NCBI RefSeq assembly: GCF_000284115.1
Contig: NC_017080.1
Location: 2,160,001 to 2,192,000, forward strand
Length of the DNA: 32,000 bases
Reading direction: 5' to 3'
Source of the DNA: Phycisphaera mikurensis NBRC 102666
Lineage (GTDB): Bacteria > Planctomycetota > Phycisphaerae > Phycisphaerales > Phycisphaeraceae
Shown here: positions 6,925 to 14,300 of the stretch, in pieces
Layout: each line of letters starts with the position of its first letter
How positions within the stretch are numbered: the first letter of the stretch is position 1
The notes under the pieces: generated by a model
The model's database searches: none
What the model saw: only the letters and a program-made list of their open reading frames with translations
What the model was told of the DNA's origin: nothing
Position numbers and translations under genes: made by a program

Positions 6925-8202
6925 ATGCACCCGCCCCAGCTGCTCATCCTCGAGTCCGACGACGCCGCTCCCGGGGCCTACGGCCGCATCGGCCTCCGCC
7001 ACGCGCTCCGGCGTGCGGGCCTGCCGCCGTCGGCCTGCCGCGTCCAGCGGCTCGGGGACTTCCTCTCGCGAGAAGCGACGCCGGCCAGCGCCGCCGGCTT
7101 CGCCGCCTGGCTGATCACCGGGCCCGCGACCCCCGCCGCCAGCGTGGACGAGGCGGTGGAACGCCTCGCGGCGCTGCACGCGCCGGTCGCCCTGACGCGG
7201 CAGCTCCGCAGCGGCGAGCGGGCCGCGGCCCCGGGGGAGGCCGTCATCGAGCTCGACCCCCGCACGCCGCTCGAAGCCACCGCGGCCGTCCTGGCCGCGC
7301 TCGCGCAGCAGGCCCGCCCCCAGGCGGCGCTCGCCGCCGAGCGTCACCTGCTCAAGCGGCAGCACGACGGGCTCAGCAAAGAGATGTCGCGGCTGAACGA
7401 AGAGCTGCGCATGGCGATGAAGATCCAGCGGGGCTTCCTGCCGGACGACGTGCCCGGCTTCGGCCCGCTGAGCGTCGGCGTGATGTGGCGACCGGCGGGC
7501 TACGTCGGCGGCGACCTCTACGACGTCGTCCGCCTCGACGAGCACCACGTGGGCGTCTTCGTCGTCGACGCGGTCGGGCACGGGATCCCCGCGGCGCTGA
7601 TGTCGATCTACATCCGCCAGATCCTCAAGCAGCGCGAGCTGACACCCGGCCGGGGCGGCGGCTACCGCCTGATCGAGCCCGGCGAAACGCTCCGACGCCT
7701 CAACGAGCACCTCCTCGATCTCGGCCACGGAGCGACGGCGCTGGCCACCGCCGTCGTCGGGGTGCTCGACACCCGCAGCGGAGAGCTGCGCGTCGCCCGC
7801 GCGGGCCACCCCCTGCCGCTGCTGCTCCGCCGCGGCGAGCCCGCCGAGGTGATCGGCCCCGAGGGCCCGATGCTCGGCGTCTTCGCCTGCGAGCACTTCG
7901 ACCAGCAAACGCTGCGGCTGCGCGACGGCGACCGGCTGCTCCTCTACAGCGACGGCTTCGAGCTCGCGTTCCCGAACCCCGAGCGGCCCGGCGATGCACC
8001 CGGCCGCCTCCGCGCCAGCGAGCGGTACGTCGAGGAGTTCGGGACCTTCGCCGACGCTCCCGCCGATGAGGCGATGCAGCGCTTCCGCGACCGCCTCGAA
8101 GCCGAAACCGGTTCCCTGCACCCGCCGGACGATCTCACCCTGGTCTGCCTGGCGGTGGACGGGGCGTGGGGGGACGAGGCGGCGTTGCGGGCGGCGGCGT
8201 AG
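6925..8202 (+). CDS. SpoIIE/PP2C-family serine phosphatase (RsbU-like) with N-terminal receiver-like domain
   Basis: 425 aa. C-terminal half A..IQ..FLP....G.....W.PA..VGGDLYDV........VFVVDAVGHGIPAALM...LYSDG is the SpoIIE/PP2C signature. The N-terminal 100 aa start LLILESDD like a REC domain. Confidence 0.8.
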   Translation: MHPPQLLILESDDAAPGAYGRIGLRHALRRAGLPPSACRVQRLGDFLSREATPASAAGFAAWLITGPATPAASVDEAVERLAALHAPVALTRQLRSGERAAAPGEAVIELDPRTPLEATAAVLAALAQQARPQAALAAERHLLKRQHDGLSKEMSRLNEELRMAMKIQRGFLPDDVPGFGPLSVGVMWRPAGYVGGDLYDVVRLDEHHVGVFVVDAVGHGIPAALMSIYIRQILKQRELTPGRGGGYRLIEPGETLRRLNEHLLDLGHGATALATAVVGVLDTRSGELRVARAGHPLPLLLRRGEPAEVIGPEGPMLGVFACEHFDQQTLRLRDGDRLLLYSDGFELAFPNPERPGDAPGRLRASERYVEEFGTFADAPADEAMQRFRDRLEAETGSLHPPDDLTLVCLAVDGAWGDEAALRAAA

Positions 8203-9075: not shown

Positions 9076-9870
9076 ATGAAGCCCATCTCCCACGACCCCG
9101 ACCGCGGCTTCGACGGCCGCTGGCTGGTCGCCGCCACGCTCTCGCTGTTCGTGATCGTGCCGCTGTTCGTGTGGACCTTGTTCGCGCTGGTCCGCCCCGG
9201 CGGCGTCGCGCCCACGCCCGAGCCGCTCGTGTACGCCGCGCGGGAGACGTGGCCCGCCTTCGCGGTCACCCCCGAGAGCCTGGAGCGCGAGATGATGTCG
9301 CGGGCCCGCACGAACGAGCGTTACGTCGATCTGCCCTTCGATCCGAGCGTGGAGCAGGAGCGGGCGATCGCCGAAGCGGTGGCGATGGCGGAGCGGCCCG
9401 ACTTCCTGGCGGCGGAAGGGCTCGAGCCGCGGCTCGCAGCCCTCGCCCGCGACGCCGGCTTCTACGCCGATGCCCTGCTCGCCCTGCGGGCCCAGCACCG
9501 CGGGGATGCCGCGGAGGCCGAGGCCGCCTGGGCTCGCGCCTTCCTTGCGGCTCCCGCCGCCGCCCACCAGCGCGTGCTCCGCGGCGACGGCTCCCGCGCC
9601 GCGGGGGCCGAGGTCGGCACCGTCGGCTTCACCTTCGACCGCATCACCGATGAAGACACCATCGACCCGAGCCTGCGCCTCGTGTTCCCCGGCGTCGCCG
9701 CCGACGCCAACGGCCTCTGGGTGCTGCCGATCTTCAAGTCGATCTTCCGCGTCACCGACCCCCCGGCCGCCGCTCCGGGCCGCGGCGGTCCGGACACCTA
9801 CGGCCCCGACGCCACCTTGACCTTCCCCGGCCGCGTCGGCGACCTCGGGGACCTCGTCCTGCTACGCTGA
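9076..9870 (+). CDS. Hypothetical membrane-anchored protein
   Basis: 264 aa. One N-terminal TM segment (WLVAATLSLFVIVPLFVWTLFALV). High GC3 in this frame. TAGCGT (9064-9069) lies 6 nt before the ATG. No family recognised. Confidence 0.55.
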   Translation: MKPISHDPDRGFDGRWLVAATLSLFVIVPLFVWTLFALVRPGGVAPTPEPLVYAARETWPAFAVTPESLEREMMSRARTNERYVDLPFDPSVEQERAIAEAVAMAERPDFLAAEGLEPRLAALARDAGFYADALLALRAQHRGDAAEAEAAWARAFLAAPAAAHQRVLRGDGSRAAGAEVGTVGFTFDRITDEDTIDPSLRLVFPGVAADANGLWVLPIFKSIFRVTDPPAAAPGRGGPDTYGPDATLTFPGRVGDLGDLVLLR

Positions 9871-9877
9871 CGCTCCC

Positions 9878-9960
9878 GGCCGTGTGCCCGAGTGGACCAA
9901 GGGGGCGCATTGCAAATGCGCTTGCGTCAGCAATCGTGGGTTCGAATCCCACCGCGGCCT
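9878..9960 (+). tRNA. tRNA with GCA anticodon (Cys) on a class II, long-variable-arm scaffold
   Basis: Cloverleaf: acceptor GGCCGTG/CGCGGCC (7 bp, one G-U). D-arm CCCG-AGTGGACCA-AGGG. Anticodon stem GCGCA/TGCGC with loop TTGCAAA. 14-nt variable arm TTGC-gtca-GCAA-tc. T-arm GTGGG-TTCGAAT-CCCAC. Discriminator T. No encoded CCA. Confidence 0.85.
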
Positions 9961-10149: not shown

Positions 10150-10788
10150 TCAAGTCCCGAAGATGCGGTCTCCCGCGTCGCCGAGGCCGGGCACGATGTA
10201 CCCGCGCCCGTCGAGCCGCTCGTCGAGCGCCGCCAGCACGAGCGGGACCTCGGGGTGCGCCTCGGTCAGCCGCTTCACACCCTCGGGCGCCGCGATGACG
10301 CCGAGGAAGGTGACGTCGCGGCACCCCCGGCCCGCCAGCAGCTCCACCGCCGCAACGGCTGATCCGCCGGTCGCCAGCATCGGGTCGCACAGCAGCACCG
10401 GGCCGTCGGCGACGTCCGGCGGGAGCTTGTCGTAGTACGTGCGCGGCTCGAGCGTCGCCTCGTCGCGTGCCATGCCCAGGTGGCCCATCCGCGCCCCCGG
10501 GATCAGCGACAGCACGCCCGGCGTCAGACCCGCCCCGGCGCGGAGGATGCAGACCACCGTCGGCGAGGCGGCGAGGCGCGTGCCGGTCGCCCCGGCGACC
10601 GGCGTCCGCACCGCCTTCTCCCGCACCCGGACCTCCCGCAACGCTTCGTAGGCCAGCAGCCGCCCGAGCTGCTCCACCACCTCGCGGAACCGCTCCACCG
10701 GCGTCCGCTCGTCGCGGAGCTCCGTCACCAGCACCCCGACGAGCGGGTGATCGAGCACGGTCACGCGGGCGGGTTCGGGATCTGGCAT
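10150..10788 (-). CDS. upp: Uracil phosphoribosyltransferase
   Basis: VLLCDPMLATGGSAVAAVELL and YIVPGLGDAGDRIFGT are Upp signatures. Start taken at ATG 10788 (MPDPEPARVTVLDHPL), preceded by GGAG 6 nt upstream. The track ORF extends to GTG 10812. Confidence 0.9.
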   Translation of the reverse strand: MPDPEPARVTVLDHPLVGVLVTELRDERTPVERFREVVEQLGRLLAYEALREVRVREKAVRTPVAGATGTRLAASPTVVCILRAGAGLTPGVLSLIPGARMGHLGMARDEATLEPRTYYDKLPPDVADGPVLLCDPMLATGGSAVAAVELLAGRGCRDVTFLGVIAAPEGVKRLTEAHPEVPLVLAALDERLDGRGYIVPGLGDAGDRIFGT

Positions 10789-10981
10789 CAGCGGCTCCGT
10801 CGGCGATCGCACGGCCGGAGGCTACCGACGCCGCGGTCTCCGGGGGCGCCGCGGACGGTGCGGCGTGCGCAGCGGAAAGGTCCGCGGTCCGCGGCGGCGG
10901 CCCGGTGCGCTCGACGCCGGGCTTGCCGGATGCCCGCCCGGCGGCGGAGCCGCCGCCCGCACGGGGCGAACCGTCGGCGCC

Positions 10982-11418: not shown

Positions 11419-12447
11419 CTAGCGGAGGCCGCACGCCCGGCGGGCGTCGTCCATCACGCCGGCGAGGACCGCGTTCGCGGCGGCGGCTCCCTCGCGGAGC
11501 ACGCCGTCGACGAGCGCGTCGTCCCGGAGGATCTCCGCCCGCCGGGCCCGGGCGGGGCCGAAGTGGTCCATGACCAGTTCGAAGAGAGCCTGCTTCGCCT
11601 CGCCGTAGCCCATGCCCGCCTCTCCGCTCGCCCGGTACCGGTCCGCGAGGGCGAGCGTCCGCAGGTCGTCGGCCCCGGCGATCTGCGAGAAGATCCGGAA
11701 CACGGCCGAAGCCTCGGGGTCCTTCGCGACCGCGGGGTCCGCGGAGTCGGTTTTGATCTTCATGATCCGCTTCCGCAGCGGCTTCTCGTCCATGAAGGGG
11801 TCGATGGTGTTGCCGTAGCTCTTGCTCATCTTCTCCCCGTCGACGCCCGGCAGCGTCCCGCCGTCGGCGCGGACCAGCAGCTCGGGCACCTTGAAGACAT
11901 CGCCGTAGGTCCGGTTGAACCGCCCCGCCAGGTCGCGGGCGTACTCGACGTTCTGCGTCTGGTCCGCGCCCACCGGCACGGCGTCGGGCCGAACGCCGAG
12001 GATGTCGGCGGCCTGGAGCACCGGGTACGTGAACAAGCCCAGCGAAGGCTTCGCCCCGCGGTCGACCTTCTCCTTGTAGGCGACCGCCCGGTCCATCGCC
12101 GCCTTTGGGCACACGCACGCGAGCAGCCAGGCCAGCTCGGTGACCGCCGGCACGTCCTGCTGCAGGTAGAGGTTGATCTTCGCCGGGTCGAGCCCGAACG
12201 CGAGGTAGTCGATCACGACCCGCCGGCAGTTGGCCCGCAGCACCGCCGGATCGGCGACGCTGGTGAGGGCGTGGTAGCTCGCGACGAAGACGAACAGCTT
12301 CCGCTCGCCCGCGGCCGCGGCCTCCTGGAGCCCGAGCAGCGGCTGGATCGCCCCGCAGTAGTTGCCCAGGTGCAGCTGCCCGCTGGGCTGGAGCCCGGTG
12401 AGGATGCGCCTCCGCCCGGGCGTTACGCTCGCGGCGTCCTTACTCAA
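11419..12447 (-). CDS. trpS: Tryptophanyl-tRNA synthetase
   Basis: [16 protein letters not shown] (HIGH-type motif), [16 protein letters not shown] and KMSKS are all present. No ATG or GTG is available, so the start is taken at TTG 12447-12445 ([18 protein letters not shown]), which overlaps the upstream stop as TTGA. Confidence 0.85.
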
Positions 12448-14300
12448 CGGCGGCCGTCTTCCGCTCGCTCCCCGAGGAGCGCCTCGGCCGACACCGAGCC
12501 GCCGGCCGCGGGCTCGCGGAACGCGATCCCGTTGCGGTCGAGCAGCGTGCCGGTGCTGCGGTACAGCTCGCTGATCGCGACCATGTACTGCGAACGCGAC
12601 TGCGCCTCCTGCGTCTCGGCGGTCGCCAGCCGCTCCTGCGCCCGCAGCTTCTGATCGACGAAGACGGGCGTCAGCGCGTTGCCCGCGTCCTCCTGGGCCC
12701 GGATCGCGCGCAGGTTGTTCGCGGCGGCGCGGCGGGCGGCCCGCGAGGCGCCGATCCGCTGGTACTCGCTCGCGACCGCACGCAGCGCCGTCTTCACCTC
12801 CAGCACCGCGTCCTGCGCCAGGCGGCGGTAGTCCAGCGTGCTCTGCTGCCGCTCCAGCTGCCGCTGCGAGACCAGCCCCTCCGCCAGGCGGTTGCCCAGG
12901 GGGTAGGAGAAGTCGAGGCTCACCAGGTAGTCCACGAAGTCGCCCTCCGACAGGTCGTCGTAGGCGTCCTGGCCGTCCTCGACGCCCACGCCGCCGAGGC
13001 CGACCTGGGCGGAGAGGTCCAGCTGCGGGAGCAGCTGGTTGTCCGCGACGGTGAGGCGGACGCCCGCGTCCGCGATCGACAGAAGCGCCACCTGCAGCTC
13101 GGGCCGGTGCCGCAGCGAGGTGGTCACCGCGTCGAGCAGGCTGAACGCGATCGGTGCGTCGACCGGCCGGTCGAGCGGCACGATCAGCGTCTCGTCGCCC
13201 AGGCCCAGCTCGGGCGCATTGATCAGGCGCTTGAGCCGGTCGCTGGCGTTCCGCCAAGCCTCCCGCGCGTTGATGACGTCGAGGCGGCGCAGCTCGACGA
13301 AGCTGTTCGCCTCGGTCACGTCCACCGGGCTCGCGTCGAACTCCTGCCGCAGCTTCAGGCGGTCGCGTTCGGTGATCGTCCGCTCCAGCAGCTTCGCCTG
13401 GATCAGCAGACGCTGGCGGCTGAAGAGCAGCTCCCAGTAGGCGGTCTCCACCTCGTCCACGAGGTCGATGAGGGTGCCGCGGAGCCGCTCGGTCGCGGCC
13501 CGCTCGGCGTTGCGGGCCAGCACGATCTCGCTGGTGGCCACCTCGCGGCCGAAGTTCCGCAGCAGCGGCTGCTGCAGCGTCACCAGCAGGTCGGCGTCGT
13601 AGAAGGGAGAGACGCCCTGCAGCGACGGGTCGTCGTCGATGCGGGCCAGGCGCGACTCCAGGCCGAGCGTGCCGTTGGTCGCGGCCAGCCGCTTGCGGAG
13701 CCCCGCCCCCAGCAGCAGCGTCTCGCTGCGCCGGTCGCCGGAGAGGCCGGGCACGATGTCGCTGGTCACCGGCCCCGGCGTGTCGAGCTTGGTGAAGTCG
13801 ACGTCGGCGAAGATCTCGGCATCGAAAGCGGCCTCGGCCTGCTGCAGCTGCGCCGCCGTGATCGACGGGCTCAACCGGGCCGCCGCGAGATCGAGGTTCC
13901 GCTCGACCGCCAACGCGATCGCCCGCTCCAGCGGCAGCTGCACCACCGGCTCGTCGATCCGGCCCAGCAGGTCGATGCCGGCGGACACGCGGGCGTCCGC
14001 GTCGTTCTCGTAAGCGGCGAGGCCGGACATGCGGTCGAGCTCGGCGGTCCGCTCGGCGTCGAGCTCGGCCTCGACGCTGCTGGGCTCCCGCGTCACGCGG
14101 ACGATGCCGCCGCTGGCGACCTCGCCGAGCAGCTGGCGGTGCGAGAGCAGCAGCGACTCCCGCAGCGCGTCCTCCTCCTCGCGCTCCATCGGGGAGGAGC
14201 AGCCCCACAGCGCCGCGGAGGCCAGCGCCGCGGCGGCGAGCGCGGCGTTCGAGCAGCGTCGGTCGCCCGCGGGGCGGCCTGTCGTGGAGGATCTGAGCAT
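12444..14300 (-). CDS. TolC-family outer membrane efflux protein, lipoprotein type
   Basis: 618 aa. Lipobox-like AAALWGCSS. Two long repeated coiled/helical halves with OEP-type patterns (LSL..AI..AL..N.DL..A......A......A...F.P). High GC3. Confidence 0.75.
   Translation of the reverse strand: MLRSSTTGRPAGDRRCSNAALAAAALASAALWGCSSPMEREEEDALRESLLLSHRQLLGEVASGGIVRVTREPSSVEAELDAERTAELDRMSGLAAYENDADARVSAGIDLLGRIDEPVVQLPLERAIALAVERNLDLAAARLSPSITAAQLQQAEAAFDAEIFADVDFTKLDTPGPVTSDIVPGLSGDRRSETLLLGAGLRKRLAATNGTLGLESRLARIDDDPSLQGVSPFYDADLLVTLQQPLLRNFGREVATSEIVLARNAERAATERLRGTLIDLVDEVETAYWELLFSRQRLLIQAKLLERTITERDRLKLRQEFDASPVDVTEANSFVELRRLDVINAREAWRNASDRLKRLINAPELGLGDETLIVPLDRPVDAPIAFSLLDAVTTSLRHRPELQVALLSIADAGVRLTVADNQLLPQLDLSAQVGLGGVGVEDGQDAYDDLSEGDFVDYLVSLDFSYPLGNRLAEGLVSQRQLERQQSTLDYRRLAQDAVLEVKTALRAVASEYQRIGASRAARRAAANNLRAIRAQEDAGNALTPVFVDQKLRAQERLATAETQEAQSRSQYMVAISELYRSTGTLLDRNGIAFREPAAGGSVSAEALLGERAEDGRR

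Follow-up and report, generated by a model that had tools for sequence, protein, structure and literature searches.

The window, a 32,000-nt stretch of Phycisphaera mikurensis NBRC 102666 (contig NC_017080.1, positions 2,160,001 to 2,192,000), contains a single tRNA gene. ARAGORN identified it as a tRNA-Cys(GCA) at 9878-9960 on the plus strand, and Rfam model RF00005 placed it at identical coordinates, with a score of 53.7 bits against a gathering score of 29 and a match to model positions 1 to 71. Together with the whole-genome inventories, these calls define a complete gene of 83 nt in which CCA is not encoded. The initial annotation, made from the sequence alone, had described an 83-nt gene with a 7/5 cloverleaf, a GCA anticodon, and U73. 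All of these features were borne out by ARAGORN, by RF00005, and by direct reading, and the two programs found tRNA-Cys at exactly the coordinates that had been claimed.

The tRNA gene is preceded on the same strand by a gene for a SpoIIE-type phosphatase (6925-8202, +) and by a 264-aa open reading frame (9076-9870, +), which has a high third-position G+C content and ends 7 nt before the tRNA. No Pfam match was obtained for this reading frame, and a homologue near a tRNA-Cys gene was seen in only one other locus, L071. On the other side lie genes for a uracil phosphoribosyltransferase (10150-10812, -) and a TolC-like outer-membrane efflux protein (12444-14300, -).

The tRNA itself can be read arm by arm. 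The 5' strand of the acceptor stem, GGCCGTG (9878-9884, +), contributes the residues G2 and C3 to two Cys identity pairs, G2:C71 and C3:G70. Its partner, CGCGGCC, is followed by the discriminator U73 at position 9960 (9953-9960, +), and one of the 7 bp formed by GGCCGUG and CGCGGCC is a U-G pair. The dinucleotide TG links the acceptor strand to the D arm, CCCG-AGTGGACCA-AGGG (9887-9903, +), for which the orthologue alignment gives a 3-bp stem, a G13/A22 mismatch, and a 9-nt loop. A single G separates the D arm from the anticodon arm, GCGCA-TTGCAAA-TGCGC (9905-9921, +), with the anticodon GCA at 9912-9914. Then come the variable arm, TTGCGTCAGCAATC (9922-9935, +), whose 14 nt comprise a stem of 3 to 4 bp, a GTCA loop, and two unpaired bases, T47 and C48, and the T arm, GTGGG-TTCGAAT-CCCAC (9936-9952, +), with its 5-bp stem. 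The Levitt pair is G15:C48. The variable region is the sole departure from the family norm: bacterial tRNA-Cys normally has a short variable loop of 4 to 5 nt, whereas here the region has 14 nt and contains a covarying helix.

Covariation was assessed in 32 gap-free 83-nt orthologues, with 500 shuffles and a set of slid alignments as controls. The cloverleaf was 98.6% paired in these sequences, and 16 of its pairs had changes on both sides. None of the 500 shuffles and none of the slid controls reached the observed covariation. The acceptor stem was 100% paired, with four covarying pairs, as were the T stem and the 5-bp anticodon stem, and pair 12:24 of the D arm also covaried. All four pairs of the variable arm covaried. 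The inner three were paired in 97 to 100% of the sequences and the outermost U-A pair in 69%, so the dependable stem of the arm is 3 bp. The hairpin that had been drawn in the initial annotation as TTGC-gtca-GCAA-tc is correct, with an outermost pair less conserved than the other three.

The hairpin contributes about -4 kcal/mol to the cloverleaf. The minimum-energy fold of the single sequence is not a cloverleaf (-37.7 versus -34.8 kcal/mol for the cloverleaf), as is common for G+C-rich unmodified tRNA sequences. This fold was discounted because both the covariance model and the covariation back the cloverleaf. A wider survey of the variable region, covering 144 genes and 110 unique sequences, gave two size classes, 5 to 6 nt and 12 to 18 nt. 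The long forms are small hairpins with stems of 2 to 5 bp, followed by two or three unpaired bases that end in C48. Their loops are mostly GNRA tetraloops (GAAA, GCAA, GTAA, GGAA, and GTGA), and the others are CTTG or triloops. A single change separates the GTCA loop of the present gene from GTAA, one of the common loops.

The genome of P. mikurensis (3.88 Mb, 73% G+C, two contigs of 3,803,225 and 81,157 bp, 99.97% complete) yielded 58 tRNA calls with ARAGORN, 46 of which were supported by Rfam. The 12 unsupported calls have odd lengths, from 71 to 100 nt. They are probably false positives in G+C-rich DNA and were discounted from the tRNA inventory, and counts of long-arm tRNAs taken from ARAGORN output alone should be treated with the same caution. 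Among the 46 supported tRNAs, the GCA anticodon occurs once, in the window gene. As for the genome-wide listing of tRNAs foreseen in the initial annotation, it contains no canonical class I tRNA-Cys besides the window gene, and it does contain one normal tRNA-Tyr(GTA), with A73.

A single CysRS was found above the cutoff (510 aa, 260 bits to PF01406), and it aligns with the E. coli enzyme (1LI5/1U0B) as far as the C-terminal anticodon-binding region. UGC is used at 8.1 per 1000 codons, and it encodes the CysRS cysteines that correspond in the alignment to C28 and C209, the zinc ligands of the E. coli enzyme. Cys codons therefore have to be read as cysteine in this organism, and the window gene is the only tRNA able to do so.

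A reverse anomaly was observed in the same genome, outside the window: a class I tRNA with the Leu anticodon UAA (G000:C1:1319268-1319340, +). This tRNA has 73 nt, A73, a 5-nt variable loop, and an Rfam score of 61.5 bits. The genome's remaining four tRNA-Leu genes belong to class II, and it lacks a class II Leu(UAA). Six further genera of the family (L166-L171) conserve the class I tRNA(UAA), there 74 nt long, and its stems have compensatory changes. By BLAST, it was found in 10 of 24 family members and in 0 of 16 genomes of other families. The codon UUA is almost unused, at 0.03 per 1000 codons.

The bacterial Cys determinants are U73, G2:C71, C3:G70, and G34-C35-A36 (Giege and Eriani, PMC9976931), and the full set is kept in the window tRNA. 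Across the 32 orthologues, the anticodon GCA is invariant, the 2:71 position is GC in 31, and the 3:70 position is CG in 30. U73 is present in 109 of the 110 unique orthologues, the remaining one being truncated. The synthetase was then compared between five genomes with class I and five with class II tRNA-Cys. No indel or fixed residue of CysRS tracked the tRNA class. Lineage-specific insertions occurred in holders of both classes, and cross-class pairs from the same genus were as similar as within-class pairs. Four alignment columns seemed to separate the classes, but each of them varied within both classes, which is expected by chance in a set of 10 sequences. Judging from these alignments, CysRS evidently tolerates the arm without adapting to it. 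Class I synthetase docking, as in the E. coli CysRS-tRNA complex (1U0B), leaves the variable region facing away from the enzyme, and the arm of the present tRNA would likewise point away from CysRS. Most likely, the single canonical CysRS charges the 83-nt tRNA through the usual bacterial Cys determinants, and we infer that it does so alone. Normal cysteine decoding is the most likely function of the gene.

When the 83-nt gene was compared by BLAST with 40 relatives, a full-length match was obtained in almost all of them. The matches fell into two lengths, 81 to 86 nt and 74 to 75 nt. The shorter, class I forms have the acceptor, D (CCCGAGTGGACYAAGGG), anticodon, and T arms in common with the long forms, and in the alignment, the sole difference is a block of 7 to 11 nt in the variable region. 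Since the D arm is shared with class I tRNA-Cys, it is ancestral to the tRNA-Cys of the lineage. Two genera, g40 and g26, hold both classes at one locus. For two genomes of one genus, G120 (class I) and G142 (class II), the alignment has 79.8% identity over 3115 nt and runs into the tRNA. For another within-genus pair, G156 (class I) and G035 (class II), the identity is 78.9% over 5845 nt, with both flanks included. A shared body at the same locus within genera makes the class I and class II genes orthologues that differ by the insertion or deletion of a hairpin. In this comparison of orthologous loci, which had been suggested at the outset, both classes were found among close relatives. Synteny did not extend across genera: apart from locus L071, the tRNA-Cys genes of other genera lacked neighbours homologous to the four genes that flank the tRNA in the window.

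The distribution of the trait was determined by a census of 401 genomes of the order Phycisphaerales, each at least 90% complete. A tRNA-Cys of class II length was found in 73 of 93 genomes of the window's own family (f1), in 83 of 142 of f2, in 2 of 142 of f3, in 0 of 11 of f4, in 1 of 11 of f5, and in the 1 genome of f6. Class II tRNA-Cys is present in at least 161 of the 401 sampled species, and nearly every genome surveyed has a single tRNA-Cys. A seeming absence of CysRS in f6 was explained by fragmented assemblies. The hairpin arm was found in 0 of 257 genomes that belong to the same class (Phycisphaerae) but lie outside the order. The long arm was found in none of 192 Planctomycetota genomes outside the order, in which all tRNA-Cys matches were of class I length. 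A scan with a pattern specific for class II, using one genome per bacterial or archaeal species, returned almost solely Phycisphaerales among the matches listed. Long pattern matches in two genomes, G410 and G230, turned out not to be tRNAs.

Two observations outside the order concern related designs. In a sister order of Phycisphaerae, an unpaired 8-nt variable loop (CATATTTC) was seen in tRNA-Cys of family f91 (for example L165, G410:C311). It occurs in 6 of 22 sampled genomes of the family, and its size is between those of the class I and hairpin forms. In a metagenome-assembled genome labelled Pseudomonadota (L046, JAZKIR010000062.1), positions 7295-7378 hold a long-arm tRNA-Cys with an unrelated body and an encoded CCA, in which the variable region is 12 nt with a GA-GTAA-TC mini-hairpin. 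With this gene, the design may have arisen a second time in cells, independently of Phycisphaerales. The tRNA-Cys genes of the order to which L046 belongs do not fit the search pattern used for the survey.

A CysRS gene tree built from 35 genomes requires seven changes of class, at least three of which are forced by well-supported branches; this tree comes from a single gene and a quick search and is a rough proxy for gains and losses. On this sequence tree, the arm has been gained or lost at least three times. Tandem tRNA-Cys genes, 100 to 250 bp apart, were also observed, with one class I and one class II gene in L114 and L135 and two class II copies in L038 and L129. Such pairs, some of them of mixed class, suggest that duplication followed by loss of one copy may be one route of class switch. 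In another genome, G009, four extra partial 3' copies of class II tRNA-Cys were seen, each running from a position between 25 and 33 to position 83 and including the arm (C30:11591-11649, C23:201523-201574, C5:9848-9897, and C27:43449-43499). Integrative elements whose attachment site is the tRNA-Cys gene leave copies of this kind.

Viral genomes also carry this design. In IMG/VR, 20 contigs matched the class II pattern (L182-L201), and in 14 of them, a long-arm tRNA-Cys with U73 was called. These phage tRNAs are 82 to 88 nt long and of the 7/5 type, have a small and mostly GNRA-capped hairpin, and often lie in clusters of up to 26 tRNAs. Most of them differ from the window gene in that their bodies are unrelated (65 to 71% identity), their CCA is encoded, and they sit within tRNA clusters. 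These tRNAs therefore arose independently. One contig, L186, has a tRNA-Cys with 88% identity to the Phycisphaerales consensus; this tRNA looks host derived, and its source is probably a phage that infects Phycisphaerales. The recurrence in phages indicates that tRNA-Cys readily accepts such a hairpin.

The reading that best accounts for these results is that the gene encodes the organism's one working tRNA-Cys, the descendant of a class I tRNA that gained a hairpin and is charged by the canonical CysRS. From the sequence data, we put its probability at roughly 85%. A short hairpin would have entered the class I variable loop between positions 44/45 and 47. A D stem of 3 bp and an unpaired 13/22 position are typical of class II tRNAs, and the ancestral 3-bp D stem, 13/22 mismatch, and large loop probably made the core ready for an arm, because the class I tRNA-Cys relatives already have a D arm of the class II type. 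Once gained, the arm would have been kept as a stable helix. It looks nearly neutral or only conditionally useful, since it has been lost or regained several times.

Several other explanations have to be weighed against this one. The initial annotation had offered two: an atypical class II tRNA-Cys used by the whole lineage, which is supported by a sole, covarying gene that is widespread in Phycisphaerales, and a Tyr-like or Tyr-derived tRNA recruited to Cys codons, with possible mischarging by TyrRS. The 83-nt length and the arm size are indeed close to those of the genome's tRNA-Tyr (13-nt arm, 3 bp), and the D arms of the two tRNAs agree at 12 of 17 positions. However, tRNA-Ser(CGA) matches the D arm just as well (also 12 of 17, both counted by eye), and by sequence, this D arm is of a generic type with a 3-bp stem and a large loop, not specific to Tyr. 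Over the whole molecule, the identity to the genome's own tRNA-Tyr is 66%, the background level: it equals the value for tRNA-Met (66%) and is below that for tRNA-Ser (69%). The same body, D arm included, is found in class I tRNA-Cys orthologues at the same locus. The window gene has U73 and GCA, the genome's tRNA-Tyr has A73 and GTA, and the A73 and U35 that bacterial TyrRS needs are both absent, which makes TyrRS mischarging unlikely. A recruited tRNA-Tyr duplicate is thus extremely improbable. A gene that is decaying or nonfunctional, or a hairpin that is an intron removed from the mature tRNA, is hardly credible either. Neither promoter-like nor terminator-like sites turned up in the vicinity of the gene, and the minimum-energy fold is not the cloverleaf, both of which would fit a nonfunctional gene; nevertheless, a sigma-70 consensus scan at 73% G+C found 0 sites where 0 were expected and so says little, a complete genome with normal Cys codon use has this gene as its one tRNA-Cys, and the gene's full cloverleaf is conserved with covariation. 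Sole-copy status and covariation rule out decay. For the intron, a search of the genome for the splicing endonuclease PF01974 gave 0 matches, while the control detected it in four archaea; with no such enzyme encoded and a hairpin of 9 to 11 nt without a bulge-helix-bulge motif, this candidate was rejected. TyrRS and LeuRS both need A73, so its absence makes mischarging by either of them unlikely and leaves SerRS as the realistic concern. In a dual-identity tRNA, SerRS would also charge a meaningful share and UGY codons would become ambiguous between Cys and Ser. The Ser determinants of bacteria include a large variable region, G2:C71, and C11:G24 (PMC9976931), and all three are present here; moreover, a long arm with G73 or U73 was deemed compatible with serylation in allo-tRNAs (Mukai et al., PMC5389517). 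On the other hand, all four of the genome's own tRNA-Ser have G73, arms of 5 to 7 bp, and exactly one unpaired base after the arm, whereas tRNA-Cys has U73, an arm of 3 to 4 bp that is shorter than every one of theirs, and two unpaired bases on the 3' side; at 4:69, tRNA-Cys has C:G and not R:Y. Substantial misreading by the sole tRNA-Cys, with UGC at the catalytic zinc-ligand cysteines, would be costly proteome-wide, and the trait is stable across more than 160 species. We therefore consider dual identity very unlikely. Since more than 160 species have no other tRNA-Cys, Cys-to-Ser misreading on a large scale is unlikely, and low-level serine mischarging is possible as far as the sequence tells.

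The remaining alternative accepts the Cys identity unchanged and differs from the hairpin-gaining class I descendant only on why the arm persists: the arm would be adaptive, either hiding tRNA-Cys from a tRNA-cutting toxin or defense nuclease or stabilizing a weak core. The trait is predominant in two large families, the arms are stable and GNRA capped, and their helix is upheld by compensatory change. Long-arm tRNA-Cys with unrelated bodies occur in phage contigs, often in large tRNA clusters, and this recurrence could point to positive selection. However, no nuclease targeting tRNA-Cys was identified in these genomes, and we know of none elsewhere. The arm has also been lost repeatedly, even within genera, which argues that selection for it is not strong everywhere. 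Phage tRNA variants are reported to bypass tRNA-cleaving immunity such as PARIS/AriB (PMC12409363), but the tRNAs treated there are those for Lys, Thr, and Asn, and the variable arm is not implicated. Overall, an adaptive arm seems unlikely, though it deserves to be kept in view. Its most far-reaching version, in which the arm is an evolved shield on which Phycisphaerales and many unrelated phages converged to block a widespread tRNA-Cys-targeting nuclease or toxin, is slightly more doubtful. If it were true, then together with the class I tRNA(UAA) of the same family, it would mean that conflict actively reshapes the boundary between the two classes of bacterial tRNAs.

As stated in reviews, only tRNA-Leu, tRNA-Ser, bacterial tRNA-Tyr, and tRNA-Sec have long variable arms, and tRNA-Cys belongs to class I (PMC4810241, PMC4033280). 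A search of the literature, with subscription journals outside its coverage, turned up neither a 7/5 class II tRNA-Cys nor any account of such a trait in Planctomycetes, and this type of tRNA is apparently undescribed so far. The window tRNA resembles the class I tRNA-Cys of E. coli (cysT), of sister Phycisphaerales, and of other Planctomycetota in its GCA anticodon, U73, G2:C71, C3:G70, and 7/5 architecture. It also shares with them the 3-bp D stem with a 13/22 mismatch and presumably the same canonical CysRS. It differs in having a hairpin of 12 to 18 nt (14 nt in the window) in place of their 4 to 6 unpaired bases, and its Levitt pair is G15:C48, unlike the G15:G48 of E. coli tRNA-Cys.

Known tRNAs with long arms include the selC*-type tRNA-Cys and allo-tRNAs, some of which also have GCA and U73 and are charged with cysteine (PMC5389517). 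These have 8/4 or 9/3 structures, longer anticodon stems, and Sec-like D arms, whereas the window tRNA is 7/5 with a 5-bp anticodon stem. The initial annotation had likewise set the gene apart from Sec-like tRNA-Cys variants with 8/4 or 9/4 arrangements, and rightly so, since the 7-bp acceptor stem and the 5-bp T stem are 100% paired. In addition, the selC* tRNAs and allo-tRNAs are extra, minor genes of other phyla, sometimes accompanied by CysRS* or SelB*, whereas here the gene is the sole tRNA-Cys and a single CysRS is present. The class II tRNA-Tyr, tRNA-Leu, and tRNA-Ser share the 7/5 architecture, a helical arm, a 3-bp D stem, and a large D loop with the window tRNA, and the arm size is that of tRNA-Tyr and tRNA-Leu (3 to 5 bp). 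The enzymes that charge them either touch the arm or depend on A73 or G73 (PMC5766645, PMC9976931), whereas the present tRNA has U73 and GCA, and its arm is a recent, lineage-restricted, and losable insertion rather than an ancestral feature. The nematode nev-tRNAs offer a further parallel, a long arm on a tRNA with the anticodon of a class I family. They have Gly or Ile anticodons on Leu-type bodies, are charged with Leu, and are minor, weakly expressed, and mis-decoding (PMC3333845). The tRNA described here differs from them in its Cys-type body, in its role as sole decoder, and in the retention of the Cys identity elements.

These comparisons bear on how the two classes of tRNA are related. 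The genes with and without the arm at the same locus form a natural matched set for studying how a class I tRNA turns into a class II tRNA. The same set addresses how sensitive a class I synthetase is to the variable region and what stops SerRS from charging a new long-arm tRNA; P. mikurensis itself is culturable. The results also suggest that the tRNA-Cys/CysRS pair could be a hairpin-tolerant scaffold for engineering tagged tRNAs. In contrast to the rule given in the reviews, a whole bacterial lineage, at least 161 of the 401 species sampled in one order, relies for cysteine on a single kind of tRNA, and that tRNA is a 7/5 class II molecule.
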